Source: an uncultured Gammaproteobacteria bacterium (lineage in GTDB: Bacteria; Patescibacteriota; Patescibacteriia; UBA9934; CAMTUG01). Taken from it: a stretch of DNA of 64,000 nucleotides. Where the stretch lies: positions 3,128 to 67,127 of the forward strand of contig CAZPQJ010000007.1 of the NCBI GenBank assembly GCA_964588955.1, in the 5' to 3' direction. The position numbers and the translations under genes were made by a program. The notes under the pieces were generated by a model. The model saw only the letters and a list, made by a program, of their open reading frames with translations. It had not been told where the DNA came from and searched no databases. Shown piece by piece: positions 3,702-62,900 of the stretch. Every line of letters starts with the position of its first letter. Within the stretch, counting starts at the first letter, position 1.

Positions 3702-3777
3702 TGGTCGGGCCGGCGGGACTTGAACCCACGGCCTCTACGTCCCGAACGTAGCGCTCTACCTACTGAGCTACGGCCCG
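3702..3777 (-). tRNA. tRNA-Pro (anticodon CGG)
   Basis: The reverse complement folds as a cloverleaf. The acceptor stem is CGGGCCG/CGGCCCG, the D-arm is GCTC-AGTAGGTA-GAGC, and the anticodon stem is CTACG/CGTAG around the loop TTCGGGA. G37 is present, the T-arm is GTGGG-TTCAAGT-CCCGC, and CCA is encoded. Confidence 0.8.
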
Positions 3778-3992: not shown

Positions 3993-4067
3993 CGGGCTAT
4001 GGCGCAGTGGTAGCGCGCTTGCATGGGGTGCAAGAGGTCGAGGGTTCAAGTCCCTCTAGCCCGACCA
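3993..4067 (+). tRNA. tRNA-Pro (anticodon GGG)
   Basis: The acceptor stem is CGGGCTA/TAGCCCG. The D-arm is GCGC-AGTGGTA-GCGC. The anticodon stem is CTTGC/GCAAG around the loop ATGGGGT. The T-arm is GAGGG-TTCAAGT-CCCTC, followed by ACCA. Confidence 0.8.
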
Positions 4068-4738: not shown

Positions 4739-5533
4739 ATGTTTCAAAAGCCTATACGACGCTTCCGACCACGAGGACAAGCAGTGGCTCATAAGGCTAC
4801 GTCTTGGGGACCAGTAGCGGAATGGTACGACAAACTACTAGAACAAAAAGGCACCTTTCAAAAAGAGGTCATTTTGCCAAACCTCCTGCGGATGATGCAG
4901 ATCAAACGTGGGATGAAGATTATTGATATTGCCTGCGGTACCGGATTTTTTAGCCGCACGTTTTTTCAACAAGGTGCCGAGGTAGTCGGAGTGGATATTT
5001 CTAAAGAATTAGTCGACATCGCCCGACACGATTCCCCGCCAGGGATCGACTACAAAGTAACGCCGGCGGAGAAGCTTGGCATTTTTGCGGATGCGTCATT
5101 TGACGCGGCGGTGATTATTCTCGCCATTCAAAATATTCAGCGCTATCAAAAAGCGTTGGCGGAAGCTGGGCGGGTGTTGAAACCGGGAGGAAAACTGTTC
5201 ATCGTCATGAACCACCCAACCTTTCGCATTCCCCGCGCCAGCGGATGGAAATTCATTGGCGAAGCGCAAGTGCGATTGGTGGAACGCTACCTAGGCGAAT
5301 TTGAAGTGGCTATGCGCACCCACGGCGAGGAGCACACCAGTGTGGAAACGGTCAGTTTTCATCGCCCGCTGCAAAGCTATGCCAAAGCCCTTAAGGCGGC
5401 AGGGCTTGCCATTACAGACATGGAAGAATGGATCTCTCATAAAGTCAGCGATTCTGGTCCACGTGCCGAAGCGGAAAATCGCGCTCGCCAAGAAATTCCC
5501 TTGTTCATGGCAATCGAAGCCACCAAGTTATGA
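4739..5533 (+). CDS. Class I SAM-dependent methyltransferase (Methyltransf_11/25-like)
   Basis: Motif I reads IIDIACGTGFFS. Acidic D and GGKLF follow it. The start was chosen at MFQKP. The upstream part of track ORF 4352..5533 is low-complexity and overlaps the 4189..4644 gene. TATAAT at 4724..4729 lies 9 nt before the ATG. Confidence 0.75.
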   Translation: MFQKPIRRFRPRGQAVAHKATSWGPVAEWYDKLLEQKGTFQKEVILPNLLRMMQIKRGMKIIDIACGTGFFSRTFFQQGAEVVGVDISKELVDIARHDSPPGIDYKVTPAEKLGIFADASFDAAVIILAIQNIQRYQKALAEAGRVLKPGGKLFIVMNHPTFRIPRASGWKFIGEAQVRLVERYLGEFEVAMRTHGEEHTSVETVSFHRPLQSYAKALKAAGLAITDMEEWISHKVSDSGPRAEAENRARQEIPLFMAIEATKL

Positions 5534-6192
5534 AAAAAATCCATCGCTTTCTGCTGCCATCTGATCTCGCCCATCAACTGCGAGATGTATTGAAAATGGA
5601 GATTGAGGAAGAGGTTGATTTGATTGACGGCGCAGGCGTGGAAGGTCGGGCGAAGATTGTTGCGCTGCAACCAAACGTCGAGGTGGAACTCACAAATATT
5701 CAACACAGTCAGGCGGAGCCGACGATTAAAGTCACTCTCTACGCCGCAATTTTGAAACGAGAAAACTTCGAAATGATTGTGCAAAAAGCCACCGAGGTTG
5801 GCGTGAGTGAAATTGTTCCCATCATCACGGCACGGACAATCAAAACGGGATTAAAACTTGATCGTCTGCAAAAGATTGCTGCTGAAGCGGCAGAGCAAGC
5901 CGGGCGAGCGGTGGTGCCGATCGTTCATGACGCGATTTCGTTCAAACAATCCCTTGTCGATTGCGCACGCAATGATGTGAATGTTATATCGGATCCCTCA
6001 GGCGAGGCACAGTGGCCCCGCCTATACGGATCCGTGGGGTTGTTCGTGGGACCCGAAGGTGGATGGACGCCGGAAGAACTACATGAAGCGCAGGCAGCCA
6101 AATGCCAACCTCAAACGCTGGGCAACCAAATTTTACGCGGAGAAACCGCGGCGGTCATCGCCACTTACCTTGCTGTGCACAAAAGACTATAG
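5530..6192 (+). CDS. rsmE: 16S rRNA (uracil1498-N3)-methyltransferase RsmE (SPOUT family)
   Basis: 220-aa ORF with the motifs GPEGGWT and LRGETAAV and a PUA-like N-terminus. It overlaps the upstream methyltransferase stop by 4 bp. Confidence 0.8.
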   Translation: MKKIHRFLLPSDLAHQLRDVLKMEIEEEVDLIDGAGVEGRAKIVALQPNVEVELTNIQHSQAEPTIKVTLYAAILKRENFEMIVQKATEVGVSEIVPIITARTIKTGLKLDRLQKIAAEAAEQAGRAVVPIVHDAISFKQSLVDCARNDVNVISDPSGEAQWPRLYGSVGLFVGPEGGWTPEELHEAQAAKCQPQTLGNQILRGETAAVIATYLAVHKRL

Positions 6193-14269: not shown

Positions 14270-14362
14270 AGGCGTGGGCGTTAACGTGTTGATTTAATCC
14301 TTTAAGAGATGAAAAGAATGACGGGCTTTCGCAAGCACCAATCATTCTTTGACTCCTCTTCG

Positions 14363-14411
14363 CCACAACATCTTGTGGCAACAAAGGAGAGTATAACACA
14401 ATAGGTTGTGG
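14363..14411. promoter_or_regulatory. Two tandem NrdR-box-like palindromes upstream of nrdJ
   Basis: The boxes are ccacaaCATCttgtgg (14363..14378) and acacaaTAGGttgtgg (14396..14411). Their centres are ~33 bp apart, in the 5' region of the minus-strand nrdJ. Confidence 0.45.
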
Positions 14412-14481
14412 TAGAGCAAAGGGCGGGGTTATCCACAGAAAATCCCTCTCAAGCTCCCCTTTTCGGCAAGAAACGGATCGG

Positions 14482-15060
14482 TTAAAACCCCATCGTCAAA
14501 TTGATCGACGGCTGTTCCACGGCCTTTTCTTGAAAATCCACCGGCACTTCATGCAGAACTCCGAGACGGTCGTAATAGCGGATGATTCCGTATTTCTTCC
14601 CAAATTCATAGACCTCTTTTGTCACCTTCACGTCCATTTCACAATACTCTTTAATTTTGCCAATCTCTCCTTGTTTCCACCATTCCACCGCCTGCAGACC
14701 ATGGCCGCTTTTGCCATAGCCAAGGGTAGCCTGGGCAACATCGTCGAGCTTAACTCGAAATCCCAAAGATTTAGCGATCACTTCGAGCAGATCGAGCGAA
14801 GGAAAGGTCTGAAAATCGCCCGCGTAATAAACATTCATCACGTTATAATCGAACCCTTTGGTGTTATAGCCAATAATCCTCCCCGAGGTCTCCAACCGCT
14901 TCCACAACTTCGGCAAATCTGCCTCTTCGTAAGAGACGTACTCATCGGTTTCGTAGAAATAACAGCTGACCACGGAAATCTTTAATAACGAATGGTCGTA
15001 GGCTCCGACCTCCTGAAAGGTGTTTTGGGTTTCAATATCTAAGACGACTTCATTGGACAT
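14482..15060 (-). CDS. RNase H-like 3'-5' exonuclease domain protein (PolB-exo/YprB-like)
   Basis: Acidic motifs are spaced like Exo I-III: VLDIETQN, then GYNTKGFDYNV, then YCEMDV. The start was chosen at MSNEV, four nt after the upstream gene. Confidence 0.55.
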   Translation of the reverse strand: MSNEVVLDIETQNTFQEVGAYDHSLLKISVVSCYFYETDEYVSYEEADLPKLWKRLETSGRIIGYNTKGFDYNVMNVYYAGDFQTFPSLDLLEVIAKSLGFRVKLDDVAQATLGYGKSGHGLQAVEWWKQGEIGKIKEYCEMDVKVTKEVYEFGKKYGIIRYYDRLGVLHEVPVDFQEKAVEQPSINLTMGF

Positions 15061-15070
15061 AGCCGGATGA

Positions 15071-15622
15071 TTATAACACATCTTCGGGGTGGTAGGCTTT
15101 GAGCCACCCATCCTCGGCAAACGGGATCCAGTCGGTAAAAGGAAAATCCCGAGCAACAACCCGGCACCCCTTAGGAAGTTCGGTTAGGAGCTTGGGTTTA
15201 AGCCGTTCGATCATCGCTGGCAATAAAAAAAGTGTCACTACGTCTGCCGGAGGCAAGGAAACAAAAAAGAGATTTCCTGAACGCACGTCGACACGATCGG
15301 CCACACCAGCCAAGCGTGCTCGGACGCGAGTCACGATGCGCAAGAAGGGATTAATCTCATAGCCGATGGATTGCATTCCAAACTCCTTGGCCGCGACAAT
15401 CAACACCGATCCCGTACCACTACCCAAATCAACAAGCGTCTCCCCTGCTTTGCCATCCGCCAAGCGAATCATTCTACGCACAATTGATTTCGGTGTTCCC
15501 ACATACGGCGCACCCCACAAGACTCCTAAACCAAAAGAGGCGATGATGAGCGAAATCAACGCCAATAAGCCAGCAACAATAAGCAGTAGAGTAATCACGA
15601 TCGACGACATAATTTCAGGCAT
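15071..15622 (-). CDS. Class I SAM-dependent methyltransferase with N-terminal TM helices
   Basis: VDLGSGTGSVLIVAAK is motif I, followed by GYEINP. The start was chosen at MPEIMSS. The track N-terminus runs into repeat element A. Confidence 0.65.
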   Translation of the reverse strand: MPEIMSSIVITLLLIVAGLLALISLIIASFGLGVLWGAPYVGTPKSIVRRMIRLADGKAGETLVDLGSGTGSVLIVAAKEFGMQSIGYEINPFLRIVTRVRARLAGVADRVDVRSGNLFFVSLPPADVVTLFLLPAMIERLKPKLLTELPKGCRVVARDFPFTDWIPFAEDGWLKAYHPEDVL

Positions 15623-15637
15623 ACGTTCACTCAGGCT

Positions 15638-15838
15638 CTCCGAAGCGGACGGGGTAGACGTTGCTCCGCAGAGCAGAACAGCCGACCAACGGTTCGAGCG
15701 ACGGACAGAAAACCGCACAAACGATTAAACAAACACAGGCCTTGTAGGTCTGTGTTGTTCTGAGCTCGAACCGTTGGGTTGTTTCTTTAGGCCTTCTGCT
15801 CAAGGACAACGTCTGCCCCGGACGCGAAGGTGAGCCAC
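15638..15838. repeat. ~200-bp MITE-like element with imperfect terminal inverted repeats ('element A', copy 1)
   Basis: The left TIR is ctccgaagcggacggggtagacgttg. The right TIR is caacgtctgccccggacgcgaaggtgag. An internal 14-bp perfect palindrome is present (ccaacggttcgagc ... gctcgaaccgttgg). A near-identical inverted copy lies at 33181..33420. A half copy lies at 20732..20797. Confidence 0.75.
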
Positions 15839-15875
15839 GGGGTAGTCAGCAGCTCGCCATGTTGATGGGTTCGCT

Positions 15876-16379
15876 CTATTCGTACCAATGCTCGCAGTAA
15901 GGCGTCTCCGCAATACAATAGTGCTCCCACTTTTTGTTGGGATATTTCTTTAGCAAGTTGCGGGCGATCCAGCGATCGACGGAATAACGTCCAGCTCCGC
16001 TGAAAAATAACATCGCCGCCATGGAAAAAATCAAAATCTCTAAGCGCACGTCACCCGAAAAACCAATAGGAATCCGCTCGGAAAAAATAGAGCTAGCCAT
16101 TTCTACCAACAACATAAATCCCGACAACCGTGTCAAAAATCCGGGAATAATTAACGCTCCACCCAACAACTCCACAAAAGAAAATGCGAGCAAAATAATA
16201 AAAGCAACGGGTCCGGGTAAAATTTCTAAGAACGTGCCAGGATGCACCCGCATCATGAACAAACGACTAGCCCCGTGCAGTAAGAGCAACGTGCCAAGAG
16301 TAATGCGTGCCGGCAGCATCCCCCACATTGGCCGGGTGACAAAAATCGACAAAAGAAAATTCTCTTTTTTGATGGTCAT
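15876..16379 (-). CDS. DoxX-family membrane protein
   Basis: Four TM helices typical of DoxX are present. The C-terminus is Cys/His-rich (CIAETPYCEHWY). Confidence 0.55.
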   Translation of the reverse strand: MTIKKENFLLSIFVTRPMWGMLPARITLGTLLLLHGASRLFMMRVHPGTFLEILPGPVAFIILLAFSFVELLGGALIIPGFLTRLSGFMLLVEMASSIFSERIPIGFSGDVRLEILIFSMAAMLFFSGAGRYSVDRWIARNLLKKYPNKKWEHYCIAETPYCEHWYE

Positions 16380-20453: not shown

Positions 20454-20731
20454 AGTGTACGCATTTTAGCACACTTGACGATGCACTAAAACATCTTCCC
20501 ACTTTCTTTGTTCCGTCAAAGAAAGAGGAGGTTATGAAACCGTCCGGCCTATCCTGCGTTCGCCGGGCCAGTAGCGGCAGAACATCCCTTGCTGCGGAAC
20601 TCGCTTCTCGGCTAACAAGATAAATAAGCCTCGTACGCTCAAACAATCCTCGCTTCTGAAGGAAAGGATGTTCTGCCGCACTGGCTCCGTCGTACTCGGA
20701 ACGGCCGGGGGCGAACGGGCAAGGGGCGAAC

Positions 20732-20797
20732 GGGACACGGACGGGGCTAATGTTGCTCCGCAGAGCAGAACAGCCGACCAACGGTTCGAGCGACGAG
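20732..20797. repeat. Truncated (left-half) copy of element A
   Basis: gggacacggacggggctaatgttgctccgcagagcagaacagccgaccaacggttcgagcgacg matches the element A left arm. It is preceded by three ggcgaacggg tandem repeats. Confidence 0.65.
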
Positions 20798-20831: not shown

Positions 20832-20950
20832 GATTTCAGAAAATGGATGAGATACGAAGTCTTGGAGGCGAAGCAGGCTGCCGAGGCGTATGCACTGATA
20901 CGGTGAGGCAGCTGCGAGCCGAAAGACGAGTAGCTCGCCATTTTCTAAAT
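20832..20950. repeat. Copy 2 of element B (~115-nt structured repeat)
   Basis: It begins gaaaatggatgagat. Its central hairpin reads ggcgtatgcactgatacggtg. Its 3' block reads cgaaagacgagtagctcgccattttctaaatcc. The ends are complementary (gaaaatgg / ccattttc). Confidence 0.55.
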
Positions 20951-21004
20951 CCGCGGAAATATAAAAACCCCTCAGGTTACCCTAAGGAGTTTTTATATTT
21001 CCGA

Positions 21005-21253
21005 TTACTCGCGAGGAGCTTTCGGGCGAGCCACGTCGAGGTGGATCGGACGGCCGTCGATTTCGCTTCCGTCGAGTTCAGCGATAGCCTTTTGGGCTTC
21101 CTCTGCAGTCGAGAAGGTTACGAATCCGAAGCCTTTCTTCATAGGAACGTACACGTCGGTCACGGTTCCAACGCCAGCAAAGTGGTCGCGGACCATGTCC
21201 TCGGTAGCTCCGAAGGAAAGGTTGCCGATGAACAGGCGATTGCCATTGTCCAT
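21005..21253 (-). CDS. RRM-type RNA-binding protein
   Basis: 82-aa ORF. RNP-2 reads LFIGNL and RNP-1 reads KGFGFVTF. Confidence 0.85.
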   Translation of the reverse strand: MDNGNRLFIGNLSFGATEDMVRDHFAGVGTVTDVYVPMKKGFGFVTFSTAEEAQKAIAELDGSEIDGRPIHLDVARPKAPRE

Positions 21254-21349
21254 AGTTTTCGGTTAGGGGTATCTGCGCTCCGCCGTTCGCGGTCGTTGTT
21301 CGACGCTCGCTCGGTCGTCAGTACCGGATGAATTACGAGAACTACTATA

Positions 21350-30044: not shown

Positions 30045-31092
30045 ATACGGTGATTAATCGCTCCAGTAGTCGATCCCAGTCGTACTCCTCTACCACCCGC
30101 TTGCGCGCGTTAGCTCCCAGTTTCCCACAAAAGACCTCGTCATTCAACAACTGGTCGATGGCGCGGGTAAGCGCGGAAGCGTCGCCAGGTGGCACCAACA
30201 ATCCTGTCTGCCCATCTTTAACCACCGTGCGCACGCCGGGCAAATCCGAAGCGATGGTGGGAATACCGCTCGCCGCCGCTTCCAATGCCACCAACCCAAA
30301 TGCCTCAGCCGATGATGTTGAAGGAAAAAGATGCATCGTCGCCAAACGATAACATGTCGGCAGCTCTTCCGGTGAACGGCTACCAACAAAATGCACACGG
30401 TCAGAGGAGACAGATGCTTCAAAACCCGCTCGCAAATCTCCATCGCCGATAATCACTAGATGGGCGGAGAAAGAAGGAGAAAGAAGGAGAAACGATTGAA
30501 GAAGAGTAGGAACACCTTTAAAGGCATGAGCAGTATCAAGCCCGCCGACAAACACCAACACCGGAGCGTTCGCCGGGATCGCGAGTTGCGTTCGCAACAT
30601 GGCTTCTTCTCCCGTGGCCACGGGATGAAAACGACGAATATCTACACCGAACGGCAGTTCAACAAGACGCGCCAAACGACGGAAACGGCGCAACGCCGAA
30701 GCCGCGGCATAATCCAACGAACTGACCAAAATCTTTTTTGCCCGCAAAAGAATGAGCGGTTGAATCAAGGTGCGATGCAAGCGAAACACCAATCCTTTGA
30801 TTCCCCTTGCCCGCGCGTCCATGTGATAGGTCAGGACAATGGGTCGACGGCAAAAAAGCGCGACCTGTTCCGCTCCGCCATACAAGGGATAGTGCAAATG
30901 CACCACGTCAAACGCGTTCAAACGCCGCAATTGCTGCGGCGAAAAAAATCCGGCATTGCCAATCTTCCAGGCGGGCGTGAACACCTCCACCTCGTGCCCC
31001 AAGGCGCGTAAGCGTTCCGTATACTCGTAGGCGACCGAGCCCATCCCCCCGCGATACGGAGGATAAACCGGCGTGACCTGGGCAATCTTCAT
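30022..31092 (-). CDS. Glycosyltransferase family 4
   Basis: The N-terminus reads MKIAQVTPVYPPYRGGMG. The C-domain reads SSAEAFGLVALEAAASGIPTIASDLPGVRTVVKDGQTGLLV. The start was chosen at the MKIAQ Met. Confidence 0.8.
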   Translation of the reverse strand: MKIAQVTPVYPPYRGGMGSVAYEYTERLRALGHEVEVFTPAWKIGNAGFFSPQQLRRLNAFDVVHLHYPLYGGAEQVALFCRRPIVLTYHMDARARGIKGLVFRLHRTLIQPLILLRAKKILVSSLDYAAASALRRFRRLARLVELPFGVDIRRFHPVATGEEAMLRTQLAIPANAPVLVFVGGLDTAHAFKGVPTLLQSFLLLSPSFSAHLVIIGDGDLRAGFEASVSSDRVHFVGSRSPEELPTCYRLATMHLFPSTSSAEAFGLVALEAAASGIPTIASDLPGVRTVVKDGQTGLLVPPGDASALTRAIDQLLNDEVFCGKLGANARKRVVEEYDWDRLLERLITVYEDCHHH

Positions 31093-33180: not shown

Positions 33181-33420
33181 TCGGACTCCCCTCCCACGTC
33201 CGAGCCAGACGTTGTCCTTGAGCAGAAGGCCTAAAGGAACAACCCAACGGTTCGAGCTCAGAACAGCAGAGATCTACACGTTCAGTTATTATTTGTTGTG
33301 TTCGTTTGACTTTCCGTCCGTCGCTCGAACCGTTGGTCGGCTGTTCTGCTCTTCGGAGCAACGTCTGTCCCGTCCGTGTCCGGGTCGCCCGAGCAATAGG
33401 CGACCCGAAGCGGACGGGGC
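33181..33420. repeat. Element A, copy 2 (inverted relative to copy 1)
   Basis: Its reverse complement matches 15638..15838 over the TIRs and both internal arms. It also contains gggtcgcccgagcaataggcgaccc, a hairpin. Confidence 0.75.
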
Positions 33421-33599
33421 GGAATGGGTTTGGTCAGATCACGCCGACCGAGATGTTCGAGCGGCAGGAGAAGATCTGTACAACACAGAACAATTTAATC
33501 TAATCTTTCAAACACCCCTATGCTGAGCAAGAACATCGAGGTTGTTTCTCTTGTAGGCCTGATCTGACCAACACAGACCGACCCGGGAGCGAGGGGCGC

Positions 33600-34775
33600 C
33601 TATTGCGTCAGCGTCAGCGTCGGTGTCGGGGTGGGTGTCGGGGTGGGTGTCGCAGCTAGCATCTGTTGCTCCGCCCAAGCAACTTCAAGCTCACGACCCA
33701 TAATGAGCGCTCGCTCGGCGTTCAAGCGCCCGGCGCCCATTTGTCCAGCGTATTTTGTTCCACGCACGTTCAGCGGATCAACAGAAAGTTTGATCACTGT
33801 TTGAATTTGTTCCACGGTTAATTCAGGAAAACCCCCTTTAATAAGCGCGGCCACAGCCGTCACCTGCGGGGCGGCAACCGAAGTGCCTTCGTACGGTCCG
33901 TTATAGGCCTCGCCAAACGTAGGATCTTTAGGGCGGTATTCCACCGAACTGTAAACCCCTGTTCCCGGCGCCGTTACATCAGTGCAATCAGAACCGTAGT
34001 TAGAAAAATCCGCTTTAGCATCGTCTTCATCACTCGCAGCCACGCCCAACACCCAATCTTCCAAAGGTGTCCCCATACACACCGGATAAATCGGCGTGTC
34101 ATTCATGTCGACTCCCCCACCGTCTTCATTGCCAACCGCGGCCACAATCACCACCCCTTGGCGATAGGCGTCGCGAATCGCCCGCTCAAAATTCGCATCA
34201 AAGGTGTAACTGGCAAAGCTCATGTTAATAACATTCGCGCCTTGTTCCACGGCATAACGCACGCCAGAAGCTGCGTCGCGTTCGTTGCCAGCCCCCAAAC
34301 CATCCAGCACCCGCACCGGCATAATCTGCGCGCGCCAGTTGATCCCAGCTATTCCTTGACTATTATTGGTTTCCGCGGCGATGATTCCAGAAACAGCCGT
34401 GCCATGATTGATGGCGTCTACATACAATCCGTGGTCGTTATCTGGATGCGGGTCGTTATCGTTCCCCACAAAATCCCAACCATGAACGTCGTCGATAAAG
34501 CCATTGCCGTCGTTATCGATGCCGTCACCAGCGGTCTCGCCACTGTTGCTCCAAATCTTATTTTCTAAATCTGGATGATCAATATCCACGCCGCTGTCGA
34601 TTACCGCAATCACCACATCGCGATTACCAACCGTAATGTCCCACGCCGACTGCGCCGAAATTTGACGCAAGTACCATTGAGAATCTTTGGCCAAGGGATC
34701 ATTCGGCTCGCGCGCGTACGCTGGAGCGGCCGCAAGGCTACCAATAAGGGCGATGATCAAAAAAAACTTCTTCAC
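33600..34775 (-). CDS. Subtilisin-like serine protease (peptidase S8)
   Basis: The Asp, His and Ser catalytic motifs are present: VIDSGVDIDHPDL, HGTAVSGIIAA and GTSVAAPQVTAVAAL. A signal peptide and a C-terminal (TP)n tail are present. Confidence 0.85.
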   Translation of the reverse strand: MKKFFLIIALIGSLAAAPAYAREPNDPLAKDSQWYLRQISAQSAWDITVGNRDVVIAVIDSGVDIDHPDLENKIWSNSGETAGDGIDNDGNGFIDDVHGWDFVGNDNDPHPDNDHGLYVDAINHGTAVSGIIAAETNNSQGIAGINWRAQIMPVRVLDGLGAGNERDAASGVRYAVEQGANVINMSFASYTFDANFERAIRDAYRQGVVIVAAVGNEDGGGVDMNDTPIYPVCMGTPLEDWVLGVAASDEDDAKADFSNYGSDCTDVTAPGTGVYSSVEYRPKDPTFGEAYNGPYEGTSVAAPQVTAVAALIKGGFPELTVEQIQTVIKLSVDPLNVRGTKYAGQMGAGRLNAERALIMGRELEVAWAEQQMLAATPTPTPTPTPTLTLTQ

Positions 34776-49449: not shown

Positions 49450-51042
49450 CTACTTCCAGTAGGCGTTGATGTAGGCGCCGTCGTTGGCGCCCGTCTTGGA
49501 GCCGTCGCCGTCGTCATCGGTCGAAACCGGGACGGCGAAGAGCGGAGCCTCGTCGTCGCGGTAGAGGTTGCCCACCACCGCGAACTCGTAGACGCCGTCG
49601 CCATCCGTGTCGCCGATGTTGGCGGCCCCCCATTGGACCTCGGCCCCGTCGAAGTACTCGACCTGGAGCACTTCGAACCCCGTGGGGAACTCCATCGGCT
49701 CGGAGACGATCTCGGTGGTCAGCACCCCGAAGTCGGCAGTGGCGATCACGGTCCACTCGAGGGTGTCCCAGCTCCAGGACCAGATCTGCCCCCCGTAGAA
49801 GCCCTCAGGGAGCTCCCAGGTGACGATCGAGAGGCCGTCGTCGATCTCCGTGCCGGTGTCGGCGGTATCGGCGTCGACAGCCGTGTCGGAGTCCTCGGTC
49901 CCGACGCCCGTGCCCGCGGTGTCCGCCGCGGAGTCGATGCCGGTCTCGACGGACCCGGTGGCCGTGTCGACCGTGCCGGTGTCGGTGGCCGTGTCGGAGT
50001 CGACCGCGGTGTCGGCCTCGGCGGTGTCGCTGTCCGCGACCGCGCCGGAGTCCGAGTCGACGAGCACGATACCGGAATCGCTCCCGGTGTCCGTGTCGCT
50101 GTCGACGCCGGTGTCGATCGCGCCGGTGTCGGTGTCCTCGGGCAGACAGTCGTCGCCCTCGTCCACCTGGCCGTCGCAGTCGTTGTCGATCTTGTCGCAC
50201 TCCTCGACGGCGCTCGGGTTGATGGCCTCCGCGTTGTCGTCGCAGTCGATCGCGCCGCTGACGGTGGTGAAACCGTCGCCGTCACAGTCGTTGTCGACGC
50301 ACGGGTCTTCCTCCGCGGAATCCGCCGCGGTGTCGGTGTCCCCGGTGCCGCCGGAGTCGACGGTGCCGGAGTCTTCGGGCTCGGCGCCCGTGTCGACGAC
50401 CTCGCAGCCCTCGTCGACCAGCCCGTCGCAGTCGTCGTCCCGCTCGTTGGAGCAGGTCTCGACCGCACCGGGGTTGACCGACTTGTAGTCGTCGTCACAG
50501 TCGCCCGGGAGGCTCGCGTCGGCGCACTCGGCGCCTTCACAGAACCCGTCGCCGTCGTTGTCGTATTCGCCGACCACGGTGCCGCTGTCAGCGTCCGTGT
50601 CGGAATCGGTGTCGGTGTCCGCGTCCGAATCCGTGTCGGCATCCGTGTCCGAGTCCGCATCGGTGTCGCTGTCGGAATCCGAATCGGTGTCCGAGTCCGT
50701 GTCAGCGTCCGTGTCGGAATCGGTGTCGGTGTCCGCGTCGGAGTCGGTGTCCGTGTCCGCCTCGCCGGTATCGACACTGCCGCTGCCGGCCGTGTCGACG
50801 ATCTCGCCGGTGTCGGTGTCCGTGCCCGAGTCCGTGTTGGTGTCCACGATCCCCGAGTCTTCCCCGGAGTCCGTCTCGACCGTTCCCGTCTCGGTGTCCG
50901 CCGTGTCGACCGGGGCGCTGTCGCCCGTGTCGATCTCGCCCGTCTCCCCCTGCTCGACGCTGCCGGTGTCGGCGACATCGTAGTCGAGGTCGATCGGGTT
51001 GCTGTCGCAGCCGACGAGGATCAAGCTGATGATCAGGAACAT
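49450..51042 (-). CDS. Lipoprotein with acidic (DTD/DSD)n tract and MopE-like Asp/Cys-rich 'putative metal-binding' repeats
   Basis: The lipobox is LILVGC. It is followed by tandem DxDxDGDGxxxxxDCDDxxxxxxPGAxExCxxxDxDCDG-type units and a W-rich C-domain. GC is ~67%. Confidence 0.7.
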   Translation of the reverse strand: MFLIISLILVGCDSNPIDLDYDVADTGSVEQGETGEIDTGDSAPVDTADTETGTVETDSGEDSGIVDTNTDSGTDTDTGEIVDTAGSGSVDTGEADTDTDSDADTDTDSDTDADTDSDTDSDSDSDTDADSDTDADTDSDADTDTDSDTDADSGTVVGEYDNDGDGFCEGAECADASLPGDCDDDYKSVNPGAVETCSNERDDDCDGLVDEGCEVVDTGAEPEDSGTVDSGGTGDTDTAADSAEEDPCVDNDCDGDGFTTVSGAIDCDDNAEAINPSAVEECDKIDNDCDGQVDEGDDCLPEDTDTGAIDTGVDSDTDTGSDSGIVLVDSDSGAVADSDTAEADTAVDSDTATDTGTVDTATGSVETGIDSAADTAGTGVGTEDSDTAVDADTADTGTEIDDGLSIVTWELPEGFYGGQIWSWSWDTLEWTVIATADFGVLTTEIVSEPMEFPTGFEVLQVEYFDGAEVQWGAANIGDTDGDGVYEFAVVGNLYRDDEAPLFAVPVSTDDDGDGSKTGANDGAYINAYWK

Positions 51043-51339
51043 GTGGGTCTCCTTGCAGGCACTCTGGCCTGCCATGGGTTCACGCTTTCAGGAACGTCTC
51101 AAACGCACAAACGTGGATTGCGCTCGAGAAAAGGGAGGAGATTCGGCTCCTTTGTCCTAGTTCCGCAACGATTTACCATCATCACGAAACAGGAAAATAT
51201 AGCATAAAAATGGGGTTTTGTCAATGGTACATGGCCAATATTGGCCAAAAAATGCCATTAAACGCGAAGACGCCGCCCGAGGAGTGAACCTGGGCGGACG
51301 TCGTTGGAGGTCAGGGCCCGGTCGGGTTGGTAGAAGCGG

Positions 51340-52857
51340 CTAGGGGGCGGTGATCATGCGGGAGTAGTCGCCGTCGCCGTCGGGGTCGACCAGGGTGACG
51401 GAGTTGGGCACCCCGTCCGTGCTGGAGTGGATGCTGGCCGAGGCGTCGTCGGCGAGCGAGGTGCCGTCCGGGAAGTAGGCGTCGACGGTGGCGCTGTCGC
51501 TGCCGCCGAGGCACAGGTCCATGGTGAAGGCGAAGTACCAGGAGGTGCCGCCGAGGAAGCTACTCGAGACCGTCACCCCGACCACGCCTTCCGGGGACCA
51601 CTCGCCGCTGAGCGCCGAGCCACCCCCGGTGACTTCGGCCACGAACGAGTCGGGCTGGCCGTTGTTGCTGTTCAACTCGACCAGGAACTCGCACGGATCC
51701 TCGTCGACGCTACCGTCACAGTCGTTGTCGAGGCCGTCGCTGCCCTTGTCGGCGGCGCCGGGGTGGATGGTGTCGTCGGTGTCGTCGCAGTCGTCGTCGT
51801 TGTCGACGTAGTCGGAGGGAGCCGTGCAACTCGTGAAGGTGTCACTCGGGTCGCCGTAGCCGTCCTCGTCGCCGTCGTAGTAGCGGGTGACCTCGTCGAC
51901 CGCGCGGTCGTGGATGTCGCCGTCGCAGTCGTTGTCCACGCCGTCGGTGGCGCAGGTCTCCGGGGCGCCGGTGTAGGTGGCGGCGTCGTAGTCGTTGCAG
52001 TCGAGGGTGTTGTCGACGAAGCCACCGGGCGCCTCGCAGCCTTCGGTGGAGGAGCTGGCGTTGCCCTGGCCGTCGGCGTCGACGTCGGCGTAGAAGGGAC
52101 TCATCACCCCCTCGTCGACGCTCTCGTCACAGTTGTCGTCGACGCCGTTGCAGGACTCGGGGGCACCGGGGTAGATGGTGCCGTCGTCGTCGTTGCAGTC
52201 GTCGGCGTTGGCCGACCACCCGGGGAAGGCCTCGCAGGCGAGGATCGTCGACGCGTTGCTGCCGTAGGTGTCGCCGTCGGCGTCGATGTAGATGGTGGTG
52301 TAGAGACCCTCCTCGTCCGTGTCGACCCAGGTGTCCCAGGTGTCGCAGTCGTTGGGCTGACCGTCACAGACCTCCGGCGCGCCGGGGTAGATCCAGGCGT
52401 TGTCGTCGTCGCAGTCCCAATGGAACTCGCTCGGGTCGCCGTCACCGTCCTCATCGTAGTAGTCGTCGTCGGTGAGCTGCTCGTAGGCGTCGGAGAGCTC
52501 CCCGCCGTTGGCTGCCACGAACTCCTCGAGGGTGTCGATGTCGCAGGCCATGGCCACGCCGTTGCTGTCGTTGAAGCCGTCGCCGTCGCTGTCCATGGCC
52601 CAGATGTTGTCGACGTGGTAGGTGTCGGCGTCGTCGGCCGCGCCGTCGCAGTCGTTGTCGACTCCTCCGTCGCACAGCTCGACCGCCCCGGGGTGGATGT
52701 TGGGGTCGGCGTCATCGCAGTCCCCGCCGAGCTCGGTGTAGCTGTCTCCGTCGTCGTCGACGTAGTAGCCCTTCTCGGTCGAACCCGACTTGTCAGTGGG
52801 ATTGCGACCGGTACCGGCACAGGCCGCGAGGAGGAGGATGAGGGAAAGGTAGCGCAT
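51340..52857 (-). CDS. Lipoprotein with MopE-like Asp/Cys-rich repeats
   Basis: The lipobox is LLLAACAG. There are 5 or more DCDD..PGA.E.C.G.DNDCDG repeats. GC is high. Confidence 0.7.
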   Translation of the reverse strand: MRYLSLILLLAACAGTGRNPTDKSGSTEKGYYVDDDGDSYTELGGDCDDADPNIHPGAVELCDGGVDNDCDGAADDADTYHVDNIWAMDSDGDGFNDSNGVAMACDIDTLEEFVAANGGELSDAYEQLTDDDYYDEDGDGDPSEFHWDCDDDNAWIYPGAPEVCDGQPNDCDTWDTWVDTDEEGLYTTIYIDADGDTYGSNASTILACEAFPGWSANADDCNDDDGTIYPGAPESCNGVDDNCDESVDEGVMSPFYADVDADGQGNASSSTEGCEAPGGFVDNTLDCNDYDAATYTGAPETCATDGVDNDCDGDIHDRAVDEVTRYYDGDEDGYGDPSDTFTSCTAPSDYVDNDDDCDDTDDTIHPGAADKGSDGLDNDCDGSVDEDPCEFLVELNSNNGQPDSFVAEVTGGGSALSGEWSPEGVVGVTVSSSFLGGTSWYFAFTMDLCLGGSDSATVDAYFPDGTSLADDASASIHSSTDGVPNSVTLVDPDGDGDYSRMITAP

Positions 52858-52933
52858 CTCGATTGACTCCGTTGGGGTGATCTCCCTAAGAAAAGCACTT
52901 GGAAACCCAGTAACTTCCGCATGGGGAGATAGG

Positions 52934-52962
52934 GTTATACCCAGGAACTGTCAAATTGTCAA
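52934..52962 (-). promoter_or_regulatory. Candidate promoter (TTGACA-N17-TATAAC) for the 51340..52857 gene
   Basis: On the minus strand, ttgaca is at 52962..52957 and tataac at 52939..52934. Confidence 0.4.
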
Positions 52963-53018
52963 TATAATGAGGATCCCCTCAGGAAGAGCGCTTCCCGAGG
53001 GGATCTTGAGAAACCCGG

Positions 53019-54629
53019 TCAAAACTTGCCGTCACAGTCGTCGTCGTAGGCGTCGTCGGGCGCGTCGTAGGCGCCGGGGTGGGTGGAGTCGTTGCTGTCG
53101 TCGCAGTCGCCGTTGTGGTCGACGTAGCCTTCCGGACAGATTCCGTCCTTGGCGGCAATCCCGCCCACGGAGTCGCCGTAGCCGTCGTTGTCGGCGTCCG
53201 GGAAGCAGGCCACTTCGCAGACGTTGTCTTCGTCGATGACGCCGTCACCGTTGTTGTCGACGCCGTCGCACTCCTCGACGTCACTGCAGTCCGCGATCCC
53301 GTCGCTGTCGGCGTCGAAACCTTCGTCAACCTCATCATCGCAGTCGTCGTCGAGGCCGTTGCAGATCTCTTCCGCGTCGGGGTTGATCGCCGCGTCGGCA
53401 TCGTCACAGTCGCCGCTCTCCGCGATGTAGCCAGAGGGCGCGCTGCAGTTCTCGATGCTGTCGCGACTGTCACCGAAGCCGTCGTTGTCGCCATCGTAGT
53501 ACCAGGTGGTGGCTCCGGTGGCGTCGGACTCGTCGGTGGTGCCGTCGCAGTCGTTGTCCGCGCTGTCGCAGACCTCGCTCGCGCCGGGGTTGATCGTCGA
53601 ATCGCCGTCGTCGCAGTCGCCCTTGGCTTCGACGTAGCCGCTCGGGGCGGTGCAGGTCGTCTCGCTCTTGCGGGCGAGGCCGTACCCGTCGCTGTCCGCG
53701 TCGAGGTAGAACGTGGAAGTGCCCACGGCGCTGTCGGGATCGATCTCGCCATCGCAGTCGTCGTCGAGGCCGTTGCAGGTCTCGATCGCGTCCGGGTTCA
53801 CTTCCGCGCTCGTGTCGTCGCAGTCGCCCGCGTCCACCACGTAGCCCGAGGGCTCGTAGCAACTGACGACCGCGTCGCCCGGGTTGCCGAAGCTGTCACC
53901 GTCGTTGTCCGCGAACCAGGTCGGGGCACCGAAGGCGTCGCCCTCGTCGACGCTGCCATCGCAGTCGTTGTCGAGGCCGTCGCAGTACTCGGTAGCGCCC
54001 AGGTGCACGCCCACGTCGGCGTCGTTGCAGTCGTCGGCGTTCTCGACGTACTCCTCGGGCACGGAACAGGCCAGGGTGGAGGAACTCGCGTTCCCCTGCC
54101 CGTCGCCGTCCGCGTCTTCGTAGAACGTCAGCTCGACGCCTTCGTCGACGCCCCCGTCGCAGTCGTTGTCCGCACTGTCGCAGACTTCGCTCGCGCTCGG
54201 GTTGACGTCGCTGCGCGCGTCGTCGCAGTCGTTGGCGTTCACGACGTAGCTCGGGATCTCCACGCAGGTGGTGATCTCGATGCTGGCGTCGCCGTAGCCG
54301 TCGCCGTCGCCGTCGAAGTAGCGCGCGTCGCCATCGTCGCTCTCGCCATCGCAGTTGTCGTCCACGCCGTTGCCGCAGATCTCGGCCACGCCAGGGTTGA
54401 CGCTCGCGTTGTTGTCGTCGCAGTCGGCCTCAGCGCCGTAGCCGTCGCCGTCGTTGTCCGTGTCGACGACCCCACCGCTGTCGCTGTCGACGTTGGTGTC
54501 GCTGTCGTCGCCGCCGGTCTCGACGTTGCCGGTCTCTTCGACCGAATCGGCCGAGTCGACATCGTCCGAATCCCCGTTGTACGGGGGCAGGAACATGTCC
54601 ATGCAGGCACTCAAAAGGAGCAAGATCAC
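53019..54629 (-). CDS. Lipoprotein with MopE-like Asp/Cys-rich repeats
   Basis: The lipobox is LLLSAC. There are ~9 repeats of the form DADGDGxG....C.....YV....DCDD.....NPGA.E.C...DNDCDG. Confidence 0.7.
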   Translation of the reverse strand: MILLLLSACMDMFLPPYNGDSDDVDSADSVEETGNVETGGDDSDTNVDSDSGGVVDTDNDGDGYGAEADCDDNNASVNPGVAEICGNGVDDNCDGESDDGDARYFDGDGDGYGDASIEITTCVEIPSYVVNANDCDDARSDVNPSASEVCDSADNDCDGGVDEGVELTFYEDADGDGQGNASSSTLACSVPEEYVENADDCNDADVGVHLGATEYCDGLDNDCDGSVDEGDAFGAPTWFADNDGDSFGNPGDAVVSCYEPSGYVVDAGDCDDTSAEVNPDAIETCNGLDDDCDGEIDPDSAVGTSTFYLDADSDGYGLARKSETTCTAPSGYVEAKGDCDDGDSTINPGASEVCDSADNDCDGTTDESDATGATTWYYDGDNDGFGDSRDSIENCSAPSGYIAESGDCDDADAAINPDAEEICNGLDDDCDDEVDEGFDADSDGIADCSDVEECDGVDNNGDGVIDEDNVCEVACFPDADNDGYGDSVGGIAAKDGICPEGYVDHNGDCDDSNDSTHPGAYDAPDDAYDDDCDGKF

Positions 54630-54868
54630 GGGACCTCCAGGGTAGGATAATCTTCAAAACAGAGCAGGCCCCTATTTTGAAGATCGGTTGGGGAAAAGTG
54701 CTAATCGTTGCTTTTGGCCTGACTTATGCCCTTGTCAGTCCAAAAACACCTCTCAAATTAGCCTTGTTTTCCTTGTCCGCGAACTGTAGTTCTTATCACG
54801 ATAATCAAGAAACGTCAAGCAATTGCGCCTCCCCAGGGAGTACCCGGGGAGGCGCAAGCAGTCAGGGA

Positions 54869-56722
54869 CTAGCCGTCGATGATGCCGTCGCAGTCGTCGT
54901 CGAAGCCGTTGCAGGCGGCCTCAGGGGTGACACCATCGTCCCCCAGGCAGTCTTCGGCGCCCGGGTGAACCCCGGAGTCCTCGTCGCTGCAGTCGCCGTC
55001 GCAGACGGTGTAGCCATCGCCGTCCGCGTCAGTGGTGTCCGTATCCGGGTTGATACCGGCATCGTTATCGTCGCAGTCGTCGGCGTTGTCAACGTAACCT
55101 TCGGGCGCCACACAGGCGTCGTAGGTGACGCTCGCGTCGCCGAAGCCGTCGCCATCGGCGTCGGCGTAGAACGTGCTGGTGTCGATCGCGGAGTCTTCGT
55201 CCACGTCGCCGTCGCAGTCGTTGTCGACGCCGTCGCAGAGTTCGTCGGCGTCGGGGTTGATCAACGGATCCATGTCGTCGCACTCGGAGCACGCTGCGAA
55301 CCCATCGCCATCCGCGTCTTCGACCCCCACCGACCCATCGCAGTTGTAGTCGAGGCCAGCGTTACAGGCCTCGGGCGCGCCGGGGTAGTAGGCGGCATCG
55401 CTGTCGTCGCAGTCGTCGACGTTGTCGACGTAGCCCTCCGGCGCCACGCAAGCGTCGTAGGTGACGCTCGCGTCGCCGTAGCCGTCGCCGTCCGCATCGG
55501 CGTACCAGGTGCTCGCGTCGATCGCATCGTCCTCGTCCACGTCGCCATCGCAGTCGTTGTCGACCTCGTCGCAGAGCTCGTCGGCGTCGGGGTTGATGTC
55601 GACGTTGGAGTCGTCGCAGTCAGTGGTGGTTCGCGCGTAGCCAACGACGCTACCGCAGGAAATGATCGATCCAGAGGGATCGCTCGATCCGTAGCCATCG
55701 TCGTCAGCATCAAGGTAGAGCGGCACCGCGTCCAGCGCGGAGTACTCATCCGTCTCCCCGTCGCAGTCGTCGTCCTTGCCGTTGCAGTACTCGTCGGCGT
55801 CGGGGTAGATGGCTGCGTCGCTGTCGTTGCAGTCAACGTCGCTCGTGTAGCCGTCGCCGTCGAGATCGACAGGCGCGGTGTCGACGATCACGCCACTGTC
55901 ACCGGTGTCGGCCGTGTCGATCGTACCGGTGTCACCCGTGTCCGTGGTGTCGACGATCCCTCCGGTGTCGGTGTCGATCGCGGTGTCCACGGTGTCACCC
56001 GTGCCAGTGTCGCCGGTGTCGGCCGTGTCGACCGTACCGGTGTCGGTGTCCTCAAGCGGACAGATCTCGCCTTCGTCCACGTCGCCGTCGCAGTCGTTGT
56101 CCGCGCTGTCGCAGACTTCGGTGGCGCCGGGGTTGATGGCGTAGCTCGTGTCGTCACAGTCGTCCCCGTTGAAGACATACCCAATGGGGATGTCGCACTG
56201 CACCTGGATGGTCGAGGCGTCGCCGTAGCCGTCGTGATCCGCATCCTCGTACAAGGTGAACATGTCCTCGGCGGCGTTGTCGACATAGCCGTCGCAGTTG
56301 TCGTCGAGGTTGTTGCACGCCTCGAGCGCGCCGGGGTGAACGGCCGCGTCGGAGTCGTCGCAATCGTCGGACTCCAGCACCCAGGCTGCGCCATCGGAAG
56401 GCTGGCTGCAGCTTTCGTAGGCATCCTCGGTTTTGCCGTAGCCGTCGCCGTCGAGATCGAGGTACCAGGTACGTGTTCCCTCTTCGTCGACCTCGCCATC
56501 GCAGTCGTTGTCGACATCATCGCAGACTTCGGTGGCGTCCGGGTGGACGGCCGCATCGTTGTCGTCGCAGTCCTCGTCGGAACCGTAGCCGTCGCCGTCC
56601 GCGTCAAGCGCGGGCAGGCTGACGGAATCGTCAATCGCCGTCTCGTCGTTTCCGCCCTTCCCCGAGTCTTGCGGGAGGGGGCAGCCAGCGAGAAGAAACA
56701 GGAACAGGATGAAGGAACGCAT
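54869..56722 (-). CDS. Lipoprotein with MopE-like Asp/Cys-rich repeats
   Basis: The lipobox is LLAGC and the start is at MRSFILF. The C-terminus reads DCLGDDGVTPEAACNGFDDDCDG and is shared with the next gene. Confidence 0.7.
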   Translation of the reverse strand: MRSFILFLFLLAGCPLPQDSGKGGNDETAIDDSVSLPALDADGDGYGSDEDCDDNDAAVHPDATEVCDDVDNDCDGEVDEEGTRTWYLDLDGDGYGKTEDAYESCSQPSDGAAWVLESDDCDDSDAAVHPGALEACNNLDDNCDGYVDNAAEDMFTLYEDADHDGYGDASTIQVQCDIPIGYVFNGDDCDDTSYAINPGATEVCDSADNDCDGDVDEGEICPLEDTDTGTVDTADTGDTGTGDTVDTAIDTDTGGIVDTTDTGDTGTIDTADTGDSGVIVDTAPVDLDGDGYTSDVDCNDSDAAIYPDADEYCNGKDDDCDGETDEYSALDAVPLYLDADDDGYGSSDPSGSIISCGSVVGYARTTTDCDDSNVDINPDADELCDEVDNDCDGDVDEDDAIDASTWYADADGDGYGDASVTYDACVAPEGYVDNVDDCDDSDAAYYPGAPEACNAGLDYNCDGSVGVEDADGDGFAACSECDDMDPLINPDADELCDGVDNDCDGDVDEDSAIDTSTFYADADGDGFGDASVTYDACVAPEGYVDNADDCDDNDAGINPDTDTTDADGDGYTVCDGDCSDEDSGVHPGAEDCLGDDGVTPEAACNGFDDDCDGIIDG

Positions 56723-56870
56723 CGTTTTCTCCGGTCTTGGTGGGTGGGTCATACGGCTCTTTTGGTTTAGAGCCGACAAAGAAACCTACACGTTAAAGAC
56801 CAAAAAGTCAAGGGTTAAGACGTCATTACGCCTCCCCAGGGAGTACCCGGGGAGGCGTAAAAGTCAGGGA

Positions 56871-57473
56871 CTAGCCGTCCTTCTTGCCGTCACAATCGTC
56901 GTCGATGCCGTTGCAGCCTGCCTGCGGGGTGACCCCGTCATCGGCCAGGCAATCTTCTGCGCCCGGGTACATGCCGTTGTCCGCGTCGTTACAATCGCCG
57001 GCGCAAGTCGTGTAGCCATCGCCGTCGCTGTCGAAGCCTTCATCAACGCCGCCGTCGCAGTCGTCGTCGAGGCCGTCGCAGATCTCCATGGCGTTCGGGT
57101 TGATGACCGAGGAGGTGTCGTCACAGTCGGTGTTGTCGACCACGTAGCCCGCGACTTCCTCGCAGGAGGTGACCATCGCGCCCGCGTCCCCGAAGCCGTC
57201 GGCGTCGAGGTCGAGGTAGTAGAGGGTGGCGTCCGTGGCCGCGTTGTCCACTTGGCCGTCGCAGTTGTCGTCGAAGCCGTTGCAGACTTCTTCTGCCCCG
57301 GGGTAGACGCTCGCGTTGTCATCGTCACAGTCGTCGCCGAACACGAACCCGTCGTGGTCGCTGTCGATCTGATCGACGCCCGCTGTGGAATCGACCACTT
57401 CCGACGCCGTGTCGACATCGTTGAGTTGGATCGACGCAGAGGAACAGGCCAGCAAGAAGATAATCAAGGACAT
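56871..57473 (-). CDS. Small lipoprotein with MopE-like repeats (paralog of 54869..56722)
   Basis: The lipobox is LLACSS. The C-terminus reads DCLADDGVTPQAGCNGIDDDCDG. A ~50-nt 3' region including a terminator hairpin is shared with 54826..54877. Confidence 0.7.
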   Translation of the reverse strand: MSLIIFLLACSSASIQLNDVDTASEVVDSTAGVDQIDSDHDGFVFGDDCDDDNASVYPGAEEVCNGFDDNCDGQVDNAATDATLYYLDLDADGFGDAGAMVTSCEEVAGYVVDNTDCDDTSSVINPNAMEICDGLDDDCDGGVDEGFDSDGDGYTTCAGDCNDADNGMYPGAEDCLADDGVTPQAGCNGIDDDCDGKKDG

Positions 57474-57719
57474 GGATGATCTCCGGTAGAGATATGGATG
57501 CCATTTGCAGGTCTCTTGTAATCAAGAGCCAACAAAGAAACCTACACGCCGGAAGCCGAAAGGTCAAGGGTGGTAATACGTGGATTTTCAAAAAACGCCA
57601 GCTGCAAGGCGCGGGGAAGCCGGCGAAGGAGCCGTATCTAAACATACGGCGACAAGACGGCGGGGCCCCGCAACACAGCAGATGGCGGAATTTTGGAAAT
57701 CCATAATCCAAAATATGAA

Positions 57720-57757
57720 GCGCCCCTGAAGAAGAGAGAGCTTCCTTCAGGGGCGCA
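57720..57757 (-). terminator. Terminator hairpin (CCCCTGAAG palindrome) after the 57824 gene
   Basis: gcgcccctgaag-aagagagagcttc-cttcaggggcgc is followed on the sense strand by a T-rich tract. Confidence 0.55.
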
Positions 57758-57823
57758 AAGAGTTTCTTCGTCGCGCCCCCTTGGGAAGATTCCTCTTCTT
57801 CAGGGGCGCCTCGTTGTGCCGGG

Positions 57824-59158: not shown

Positions 59159-59194
59159 GGGGTGATACTCCGCGGCTTCAAGCCGCGCTCGCAC

Positions 59195-59432
59195 TGTTAC
59201 GGGAACCGGAAACTCACACAGGATTGTGCGTCCGTCGTCGTTGTCCAGGAATTGAACCTTTCGGACGGACGGAAGTTGGGGAACAGGATTGGGAGATAAA
59301 GATGGAGAAAGAGGGAGAAAAATGGATATTGGGAAAAAATTCTTTTCCCTTTCTCCTATCTCCTATTTTCTCCTACTTTTTCTCTATCCACCCAATTCCA
59401 CAACTTCCATCCGCCTATACAGATTCAATCTC
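59195..59432. repeat. Upstream module copy 1 (~240 bp): conserved 5' leader hairpin plus GGAGAAA-rich palindrome, directly upstream of the 57824..59158 gene
   Basis: It runs ggaaccggaaactcacacaggattgtgcg-tccgtcgtcgttgtcc...gaacctttcggacggacggaagttgggg, then ggagataaagatggagaaagagggagaaaaatggatattggg...ttcttttccctttctcctatctcc, then ccacaacttccatccgcc. It matches 61069..61292. Confidence 0.7.
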
Positions 59433-62765: not shown

Positions 62766-62900
62766 AGAAAGATAAAAATAAAAAGTAGGAGAAAAAAGGA
62801 GAAAGGAGAAAGTGGGATAAACGGAGAAAATAGGATATTGGGGAAAGGACTTTCCCCTTTCTCATACTTTATCTTTTCTCCATCTTTTTTTTATCTCTTT
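62765..62900. repeat. GGAGAAA-rich palindromic element (copy outside the high-GC island)
   Basis: The sequence is gtaggagaaaaaaggagaaaggagaaagtgggataaacggagaaaataggatattggggaaaggactttcccctttctcatactttatcttttctcc. Confidence 0.6.

Follow-up and report, generated by a model that had tools for sequence, protein, structure and literature searches.

The locus described here raises a simple question: what is the ~205-nt sequence that recurs between the genes of the window, as we call the whole 64-kb stretch of DNA that was analysed, and how did it come to lie there? The preliminary description had taken it for a MITE-like unit and had proposed either a non-autonomous mobile element or a structured non-coding RNA family. 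The analysis supports the mobile half of this proposal, and it lends no support to an independent family of ncRNA genes.

A palindromic repeat family of ~205 nt is confirmed to be real, with matches far beyond chance. The dispersed copies claimed earlier are borne out by blastn, with E-values down to 4e-49, and by the count of the core 14-mer, which has five exact occurrences where 0.76 would be expected even with two mismatches allowed. The window contains three full copies of 202-207 nt (A, B, and B2) and one half copy (C), giving 3.5 copies in total (Table 1). The earlier count of at least 2.5 had overlooked B2, a fourth copy that is diverged but of full length. The full copy placed at 15638-15838 and the left-half copy placed at 20732-20797 are both real, with limits refined to those in Table 1. 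The inverted copy placed at 33181-33420 corresponds to copy B, but this range fuses B with the start of B2.

Copies A and B share 82% identity over 208 nt (blastn, E 4e-49), distributed unevenly, with 94-97% in the arms but 37-62% in the central part and at the outermost ends. Copies A and C share 93% over 58 nt (blastn, E 1e-15). The identity between A and B2 amounts to 61%, with an E-value of 0.002 by blastn with A alone and an alignment that is clear from end to end (33394-33604); nhmmer and covariance models also recover B2, which had itself been part of these models. Overall, B2 is about 50-60% identical to A and B, with a column identity of about 50%. Even in B2, the sequence is kept in the left terminus AGGCGACCCGAAGCGGACGGGG, in the cores GTTCGAGCG and CTGAGC..GAAC, and in an unpaired block of the right arm, GGTTGTTTCT.TT. 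The GC content of the element is 57%. A search of the window for repeats returned the copies as long inverted repeats, listed in Table 1. The ends are untidy in two places: the terminus of copy C is tandemly duplicated, and the 11-nt stretch outside the right end of copy A could be a remnant of another copy or a coincidence (estimated at ~1-2% by chance).

Table 1. Coordinates of the repeat copies and of the other features discussed in the text, counted from the first letter of the window.
Feature	Position	Strand	Remarks
Copy A, full length	15634-15836	+	203 nt; blastn, nhmmer/covariance models
Copy A, left terminal inverted repeat GGCTCTCCGAAGCGGACGGGGTAGACGTTG	15634-15663	+	30 nt, 77% complementary to 15807-15836
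Copy A, right terminal inverted repeat	15807-15836	+	pairs with 15634-15663
Copy A, inner core 14-mer CCAACGGTTCGAGC	15686-15699	+	inverted partner at 15764-15777
11-nt stretch ACGGGGTAGTC	15837-15847	+	abuts the right end of A, outside it; matches 15649-15659 of the left terminal repeat at 10/11
Copy C, left arm only	20725-20795	+	71 nt; 90-93% identity to A and B
Copy C terminus GGGGCGAACGGG, duplicated	20708-20719 and 20723-20734		tandem
Copy B, full length	33183-33389	-	inverted relative to A; blastn, nhmmer, covariance model
Copy B, terminal repeats	out to 33179 and 33394		
Copy B2, full length	33399-33600	+	old and diverged; head-to-head with B, 9 nt apart
Copy B2, terminal repeat GCAATAGGCG	out to 33393 and 33606		
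Stop codon (TAG) of the S8 peptidase gene	33600-33602		within the B2 terminal repeat; S8 gene upstream
Inverted repeat pair	15727-15824 / 33197-33294		98 nt, 87%
Inverted repeat pair	15646-15722 / 33300-33376		77 nt, 88%
Inverted repeat pair, C and B	20724-20795 / 33319-33390		72 nt, 90%
ORF in a copy	15627-15809	-	
ORF in copies	33212-33526	+	
Stop of the DoxX-like gene	15876	-	flanks the site of A
Start of the methyltransferase-like gene	15622	-	flanks the site of A
RRM_1 gene	21005-21253	-	flanks the site of C
162-aa ORF	20843-21331	+	spurious
Second long hairpin	20567-20690		~120 nt; arms 20574-20599 / 20654-20679
tRNA gene	3705-3777	-	
tRNA gene	3993-4064	+	
RsmE-like 16S rRNA methyltransferase gene	5530-6192	+	
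REP-like singlet aggcgaggcacagtggccccgcctata	6000-6026		within the RsmE-like gene
7-nt direct repeat cggatcc	5990-5996 and 6027-6033		brackets the REP-like singlet
Purine/pyrimidine-rich inverted repeats on GGAGAAAG / CTTTCTCC	59266-59413, 61160-61251, 62770-62896, 30459-30495		in spacers
Inverted repeat with CCCCTGAAG…CTTCAGGGGCGC	57717-57812		45-nt arms, 78% complementary, 6-nt loop
GC-rich repeat region	49450-59194	-	~10 kb at 61-66% GC versus ~51% elsewhere

The full copies are all imperfect palindromes over their entire length, each composed of two arms of ~95 nt and a variable centre of ~45 nt, with an extra unpaired block of ~12 nt in the right arm. Terminal inverted repeats and a palindrome of 14 bp had been described earlier. 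The terminal repeats are present, over 30 nt at 77% in A and over 37 nt at 73% in B, but the palindromy extends over the whole length of the element. For the prediction of secondary structures, the equivalent strand and the opposite strand of each copy were folded and scored against shuffled sequences. As RNA, copy A reaches -117.7 kcal/mol (z -9.45) on the equivalent strand and -102.8 kcal/mol (z -6.7) on the opposite one, copy B -104.3 (z -7.5) and -85.2 (z -4.9), and copy B2 -85.1 (z -5.6) and -84.5 (z -5.7). With DNA parameters, copy A folds at -62.3 kcal/mol (z -8.3). The alignment of A, B, and B2 contains compensatory double changes at 14 of the 59 consensus pairs, compared with 5.3±1.8 in shuffled controls, none of 500 reaching 14, and 1-5 in controls with the partners slid. 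All 14 changes fall on one branch (B2 versus A/B) and therefore count as a single strong observation, not as a series of independent ones. The fold-back structure has been kept by compensatory changes on both arms, and such deep but compensated divergence between the copies indicates that the hairpin itself is under constraint.

Very stable hairpins in all three full copies, including the diverged B2 with its compensated stem, might also be expected from a structured RNA family, that is, a separate gene for a small RNA or an mRNA element acting in cis under host selection, with the hairpin as the functional product and dispersal being secondary. The unpaired right-arm block conserved in sequence even in B2 fits this explanation, and so does the better folding of A and B on one strand, by 15-19 kcal/mol. 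However, in an unbiased arm-versus-arm alignment, G·T mismatches are not in excess over A·C mismatches (4 versus 5 in A, 2 versus 2 in B, and 0 versus 3 in B2), and the symmetry therefore belongs to the duplex, or both strands, and not to one RNA strand. We rejected the strand difference in folding energy as a sign of RNA since no G·T excess matches it. Among the signatures of structured RNA suggested earlier, the conservation of the hairpin with its compensatory changes is thus real, but neither an Rfam match nor a strand bias in wobble pairs accompanies it. At the gathering threshold, Rfam detects two tRNAs in the whole window and no match to the element; within 15580-15900, it finds nothing up to an E-value of 10. 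The two tRNA genes are divergent (70 and 68 bits), and their mutual complementarity over 59 nt shows up as an inverted repeat. There are no promoter-like sites within the copies, and we found no terminator-like site on any copy and no T-run after the hairpin on either strand. The orientation with respect to the co-directional flanking genes, all of which are encoded on the minus strand, also differs between the copies, A and B2 pointing one way and B the other. As for coding potential, the ORFs within the copies share peptides only where they share DNA, as noted before, and a search of 5.8 billion proteins with the 60-aa ORF peptide, which would also have caught spurious ORF calls on other copies, turned up no relative.

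To see the copy sites in an evolutionary context, we turned to the gene neighbourhoods. Nearly all named homologues of two flanking proteins belong to Candidatus Uhrbacteria or to the Patescibacteria group, and proteins of the window also occur in Logan assemblies of SRR16481186. Syntenic loci are available from at least six related metagenomic contigs of Patescibacteria, with 55-81% protein identity. Copies B and B2 lie between the genes for an S8 peptidase and a UDP-sugar epimerase/dehydratase, in a spacer of 459 nt that measures 26 nt in two relatives (L006 and L007), 29 nt in L008, and 21 nt in L014. Subtracting B and B2 leaves ~50 nt, in which a promoter-like site, ATGACA-17-TAAACT, has been retained directly upstream of the gene for the epimerase. 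Copy A separates the DoxX-like gene from the methyltransferase-like gene by 253 nt, whereas the two genes overlap in ATGAATAG in L009. In L010, the DoxX gene likewise stops at ATGAATAA, and the methyltransferase-like gene is preceded by a short additional gene. At this site, the ancestral ATG of the methyltransferase gene has become ACG in the window, and the gene now starts past the element. Copy C resides in the spacer between the RRM_1 gene and a DUF6938 gene, which is 551 nt long in the window and 125 nt in L009. Three operon-internal spacers have thus grown from 0-125 to 250-550 nt and one translational overlap has been broken, so the element visibly reshapes gene organisation in one species.

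No copy of the element was found by nhmmer or the covariance model in ~125 kb of the relatives' DNA. Absent at the conserved loci in all relatives, the element serves no conserved host need, and we consider it improbable that the repeat is a structured RNA family. A strain from another sample (SRR17347193), 99.06% identical over 4,805 nt, shares one end of copy A, which lies there just where it does in the window. The simplest history suggested by these sequences would be a gain by insertion within the lineage of the host species, followed by stable inheritance.

The enlarged spacer around copy C has further peculiarities. The 162-aa ORF there is spurious, being antisense to the real RRM_1 gene; that its length equals that of a gene at the same position in L012 and L013 is a coincidence, as the two have no similarity, and no remnant of the relatives' 162-aa gene is present within the window. 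A second long hairpin adjoins copy C in the same spacer. It folds as RNA at -61 kcal/mol (z -7.6), occurs once in the window, and has a sequence unrelated to that of the main element. In two samples, Logan contigs are interrupted in or beside this hairpin. Logan contigs also terminate within copies of the element. We rejected these breaks as evidence for a high copy number because three copies in the window and palindromes as such suffice to cause them, and one break (20524 / 20605) belongs to the other hairpin and not to the main element.

We conclude, with a probability of roughly 0.6, that the repeat is a lineage-specific, non-coding, non-autonomous palindromic insertion element of ~205 nt that is MITE/REPIN-like. 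The occurrence in both orientations, the truncated copy, the head-to-head pair, the three empty sites, the missing coding capacity, and a window free of transposases support this mobile-element reading. As for the last point, Pfam scans of all large ORFs in the window detected no transposase, integrase, or reverse-transcriptase domain, in agreement with the preliminary description, which had seen no transposase. The element inserted in either orientation into very short spacers of conserved gene strings in one Uhrbacteria-like Patescibacteria species. The copies later diverged; one was cut to a half (C), and one landed beside an older copy.

A point against this conclusion is that only 3.5 copies are seen, all from 64 kb of the genome. 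Together with the missing target-site duplications (see below), the lack of a transposase in the window, and the untidy ends at copies C and A, such a low number would also be compatible with a non-mobile origin, in which relics of decayed IS ends or local duplication and recombination produced the copies and the palindromy is incidental. The copies, however, sit in three different spacers, with 5 and 12 kb between them, and the conserved gene strings around these are otherwise collinear; the full-length copies end alike in both orientations. Their palindromy has been held across deep divergence by compensatory changes, none of which would be shown by incidental relics. A non-mobile origin is therefore very unlikely in our view.

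The termini of the element were inspected for traces of insertion. Similarity among the copies sets in at GGC(G/T)… on the left side, and on the right side at …G(A/C)(G/T)CC. The inverted symmetry runs further outward, through GCTCGG in B and GCAATAGG in B2, the latter taking in the TAG stop codon of the S8 gene. No target-site duplication, for which a search had been suggested earlier, and no other flanking direct repeat was found at any copy. The flanks read …CACTCA / ACGGGG… for A, …TGCTCG / GAGCAT… for B, and …GCAATA / TATTGC… for B2, the similarity in B and B2 being inverted, not direct. A conserved target tetranucleotide beside the copies is likewise absent. Since the relatives are distant and their spacers are not alignable base by base, the exact insertion boundaries are only inferred.

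MITEs are shorter than 500 bp, carry terminal inverted repeats, form very stable stem-loops in their transcripts, and have direct repeats that fade as the element ages (PMC10969869). The missing duplications therefore weaken membership in this class without excluding it. We compared the element with the MITEs that form a stem-loop over their whole length, namely Correia/CREE of Neisseria, ERIC/IRU of enterobacteria, RUP of pneumococcus, QMITE2 of Coxiella, and the Rickettsia palindromic elements. Like these, it is non-coding, falls into the range of 100-250 nt, and carries terminal inverted repeats; it is intergenic, often directly after stop codons, and occurs in both orientations and with truncated copies. 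The predicted transcript hairpins of ~-100 kcal/mol are also comparable (PMC10969869), the stem-loop of QMITE2 having -113 kcal/mol (PMC10969869). Unlike known MITEs, the element shows no sequence similarity in collections of E. coli genomes, plasmids, and phages, has no TA or other target-site duplication, and has no known partner IS. With a GC-rich sequence, it also departs from typical MITEs, which are AT-rich. Moreover, it resides in a host of the Patescibacteria (CPR), a group absent from the 2024 review of prokaryotic MITEs (PMC10969869).

The scans of public collections required an exact match of the core (a degenerate 24-mer covering both core arms) or identity at the level of blastn. 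The 24-mer matched once in the genome collection, twice in the metagenome collection, and never in the viral collection, and none of the matches is a copy. All three fall into seemingly unrelated gene-like sequence with flanks unlike the element, and two of them represent one actinomycete sequence. An autonomous partner of the element was found neither by these scans nor among the large ORFs of the window. In its distant mode, blastn found no match among 5,426 E. coli genomes, and hence no likeness to ERIC, REP, or BIME there. Among plasmids and phages, it found nothing except two marginal matches in Gordonia phages (30 nt, E 5e-3), which we treated as chance. Two other kinds of element were dismissed. 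An integron attC site was rejected because of the size (>141 nt), the missing integrase, and the syntenic housekeeping context. ISL3-like or Tn3-like ends (GGCTCT… and GGGG…) are improbable, as the expected duplications of 8 bp or 5 bp are absent.

Which enzyme could have mobilised such an element? The element would have been moved in trans by an enzyme that is encoded elsewhere and recognises structured or inverted ends. Transposition of the Y1/HUH (IS200/IS605) type acts on single-stranded hairpins and leaves no target-site duplication. With no duplication and with self-complementarity over the whole length, a Y1/HUH enzyme acting on a single-stranded hairpin is no less likely than a DDE transposase, and it would explain the need for self-complementarity over the entire length. 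Alternatively, a DDE transposase might act on the terminal repeats, as for a classical MITE; it would normally leave a duplication that fades with age. Nezha-type MITEs of cyanobacteria are linked to transposases of the IS200/IS605 family. They resemble the present element as small, palindromic, and non-autonomous sequences thought to be moved by a Y1 transposase, but our window has no IS200/IS605 partner and its copies no conserved target tetranucleotide.

A special case of the mobile-element reading is a REPIN-like element moved by a Y1 tyrosine transposase of the RAYT type. REPINs are inverted doublets that form hairpins, in which compensatory changes are common, and which leave singlet remnants and occur in clusters (PMC3116915); their system is vertically inherited and lineage-specific (PMC3116915). 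Our element shares with them the inverted doublet that yields one long hairpin and the whole-length palindromy with compensatory changes, and its lack of target-site duplications is as expected for Y1/HUH transposition. The half copy C as a singlet and the head-to-head pair of B and B2 as a cluster also correspond to the published pattern (PMC3116915). RAYT and REP sequences furthermore exist in related genomes: relatives carry a single syntenic RAYT of 189 aa between the genes for ribonucleotide reductase and lumazine synthase. It scores 104 bits with NF047646 (NCBIfam), above the equivalog cut-off of 80, and is flanked by REP hairpins of the form TATAGGCGGGGC-N6-GCCCCGCC (L009 16148-17325, L012 17308-18397, and L006 6917-6938). 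The window itself contains one REP singlet, and at the very ends of B2, ATAGGCG / CGCCTAT agrees with the REP flank plus the beginning of the REP stem.

This last likeness, however, is limited to B2, and the REP hairpins of the relatives differ in sequence from the ~205-nt element. At ~205 nt, the element has about twice the length described for REPINs, and its arms of ~95 nt lack the short GC-rich palindrome of the REP type, which measures about 20-25 nt and has a conserved 5' motif. The only local stem, in the left arm, comprises 5 bp (TGCTC-CGMA-GAGCA), and a conserved 5' tetranucleotide is missing, GTAG occurring in A only. No RAYT was found beside the copies and no cognate RAYT flanked by the element was seen. 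The window has no Y1_Tnp domain, also not in the 62-nt spacer between its ribonucleotide reductase and DMRL synthase (lumazine synthase) genes, where the relatives have their RAYT. No remnant of a RAYT was detected in the window either; tblastn with the RAYTs of the relatives gave nothing credible, the best match (E 0.003, 23%) lying inside a 1877-aa ORF. Given a window without a RAYT, a different REP sequence, and no REP palindrome, we keep the general mobile-element reading at the probability stated above and regard the version driven by a RAYT as rather unlikely. More boldly, a RAYT-type Y1/HUH transposase might have the element as its replicating hairpin partner; the element would then be an unusually long REPIN-like replicator in a streamlined CPR genome, a reading that we also consider doubtful. 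Such a replicator would co-exist with the short GGCGGGGC-type REP found around, and even inside, the RAYT gene of relatives, and its conserved asymmetric bulge would be a site of protein recognition.

Several further observations concern the REP sequences and related genes. A REPIN-like inverted REP doublet, with arms of 33 nt and a spacer of 48 nt, is located in frame within the RAYT ORF of relatives, where it is translated as '…RGAVAPP…'; two genomes have conserved it. The REP singlet of the window lies within the gene for an RsmE-like methyltransferase and is bracketed by a 7-nt direct repeat (Table 1); it has the appearance of an insertion into a gene whose reading frame stayed open. In L008, we noticed a second, different Y1_Tnp-like gene of 250 aa (14316-15236), which scores 58 bits with REP_Tyr_transpos, below the cut-off. 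It lies at the contig end between inverted repeats of 39 nt (87% complementary), forming an IS-like unit, and occupies the place of the 1877-aa gene of the window.

The window also contains other repeats. Purine/pyrimidine-rich inverted repeats in several spacers match each other over up to 33 nt at 94% and may represent a second intergenic repeat family. Another inverted repeat, at 57717-57812, falls into the GC-rich region, which is filled with coding repeats of ~200 nt and of 12-18 nt (D/C-rich metal-binding motifs of the MopE type). The several long ORFs of this region represent either a giant surface protein that was split by frameshifts or assembly errors, or adjacent paralogues.

The ~205-nt element is best filed as a new family within a known class of elements, lacking one defining trait of MITEs, the duplication, and one of REPINs, the REP unit with an adjacent RAYT. 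Overall, it is a solid but ordinary kind of finding. Inserted copies would be co-transcribed with the flanking genes as RNA hairpins of 90 bp, which should uncouple genes that formerly overlapped or were adjacent. By analogy with Correia, ERIC, and REP sequences, the hairpins may affect the processing and stability of mRNA. CREE can generate promoters and binds IHF, and RNase III cuts or protects it (PMC2649163).

Genomes of Patescibacteria (CPR) are small and tightly packed, and small non-coding mobile repeats are essentially undescribed there; we found nothing relevant in the literature on MITEs in Patescibacteria or on RAYT or REP-RAYT systems in CPR. Repeats of this kind break short-read assemblies of uncultured organisms, and they could act as strain markers. 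With a hairpin under constraint, the family offers a small system in which to examine the copying and tolerance of palindromic repeats.
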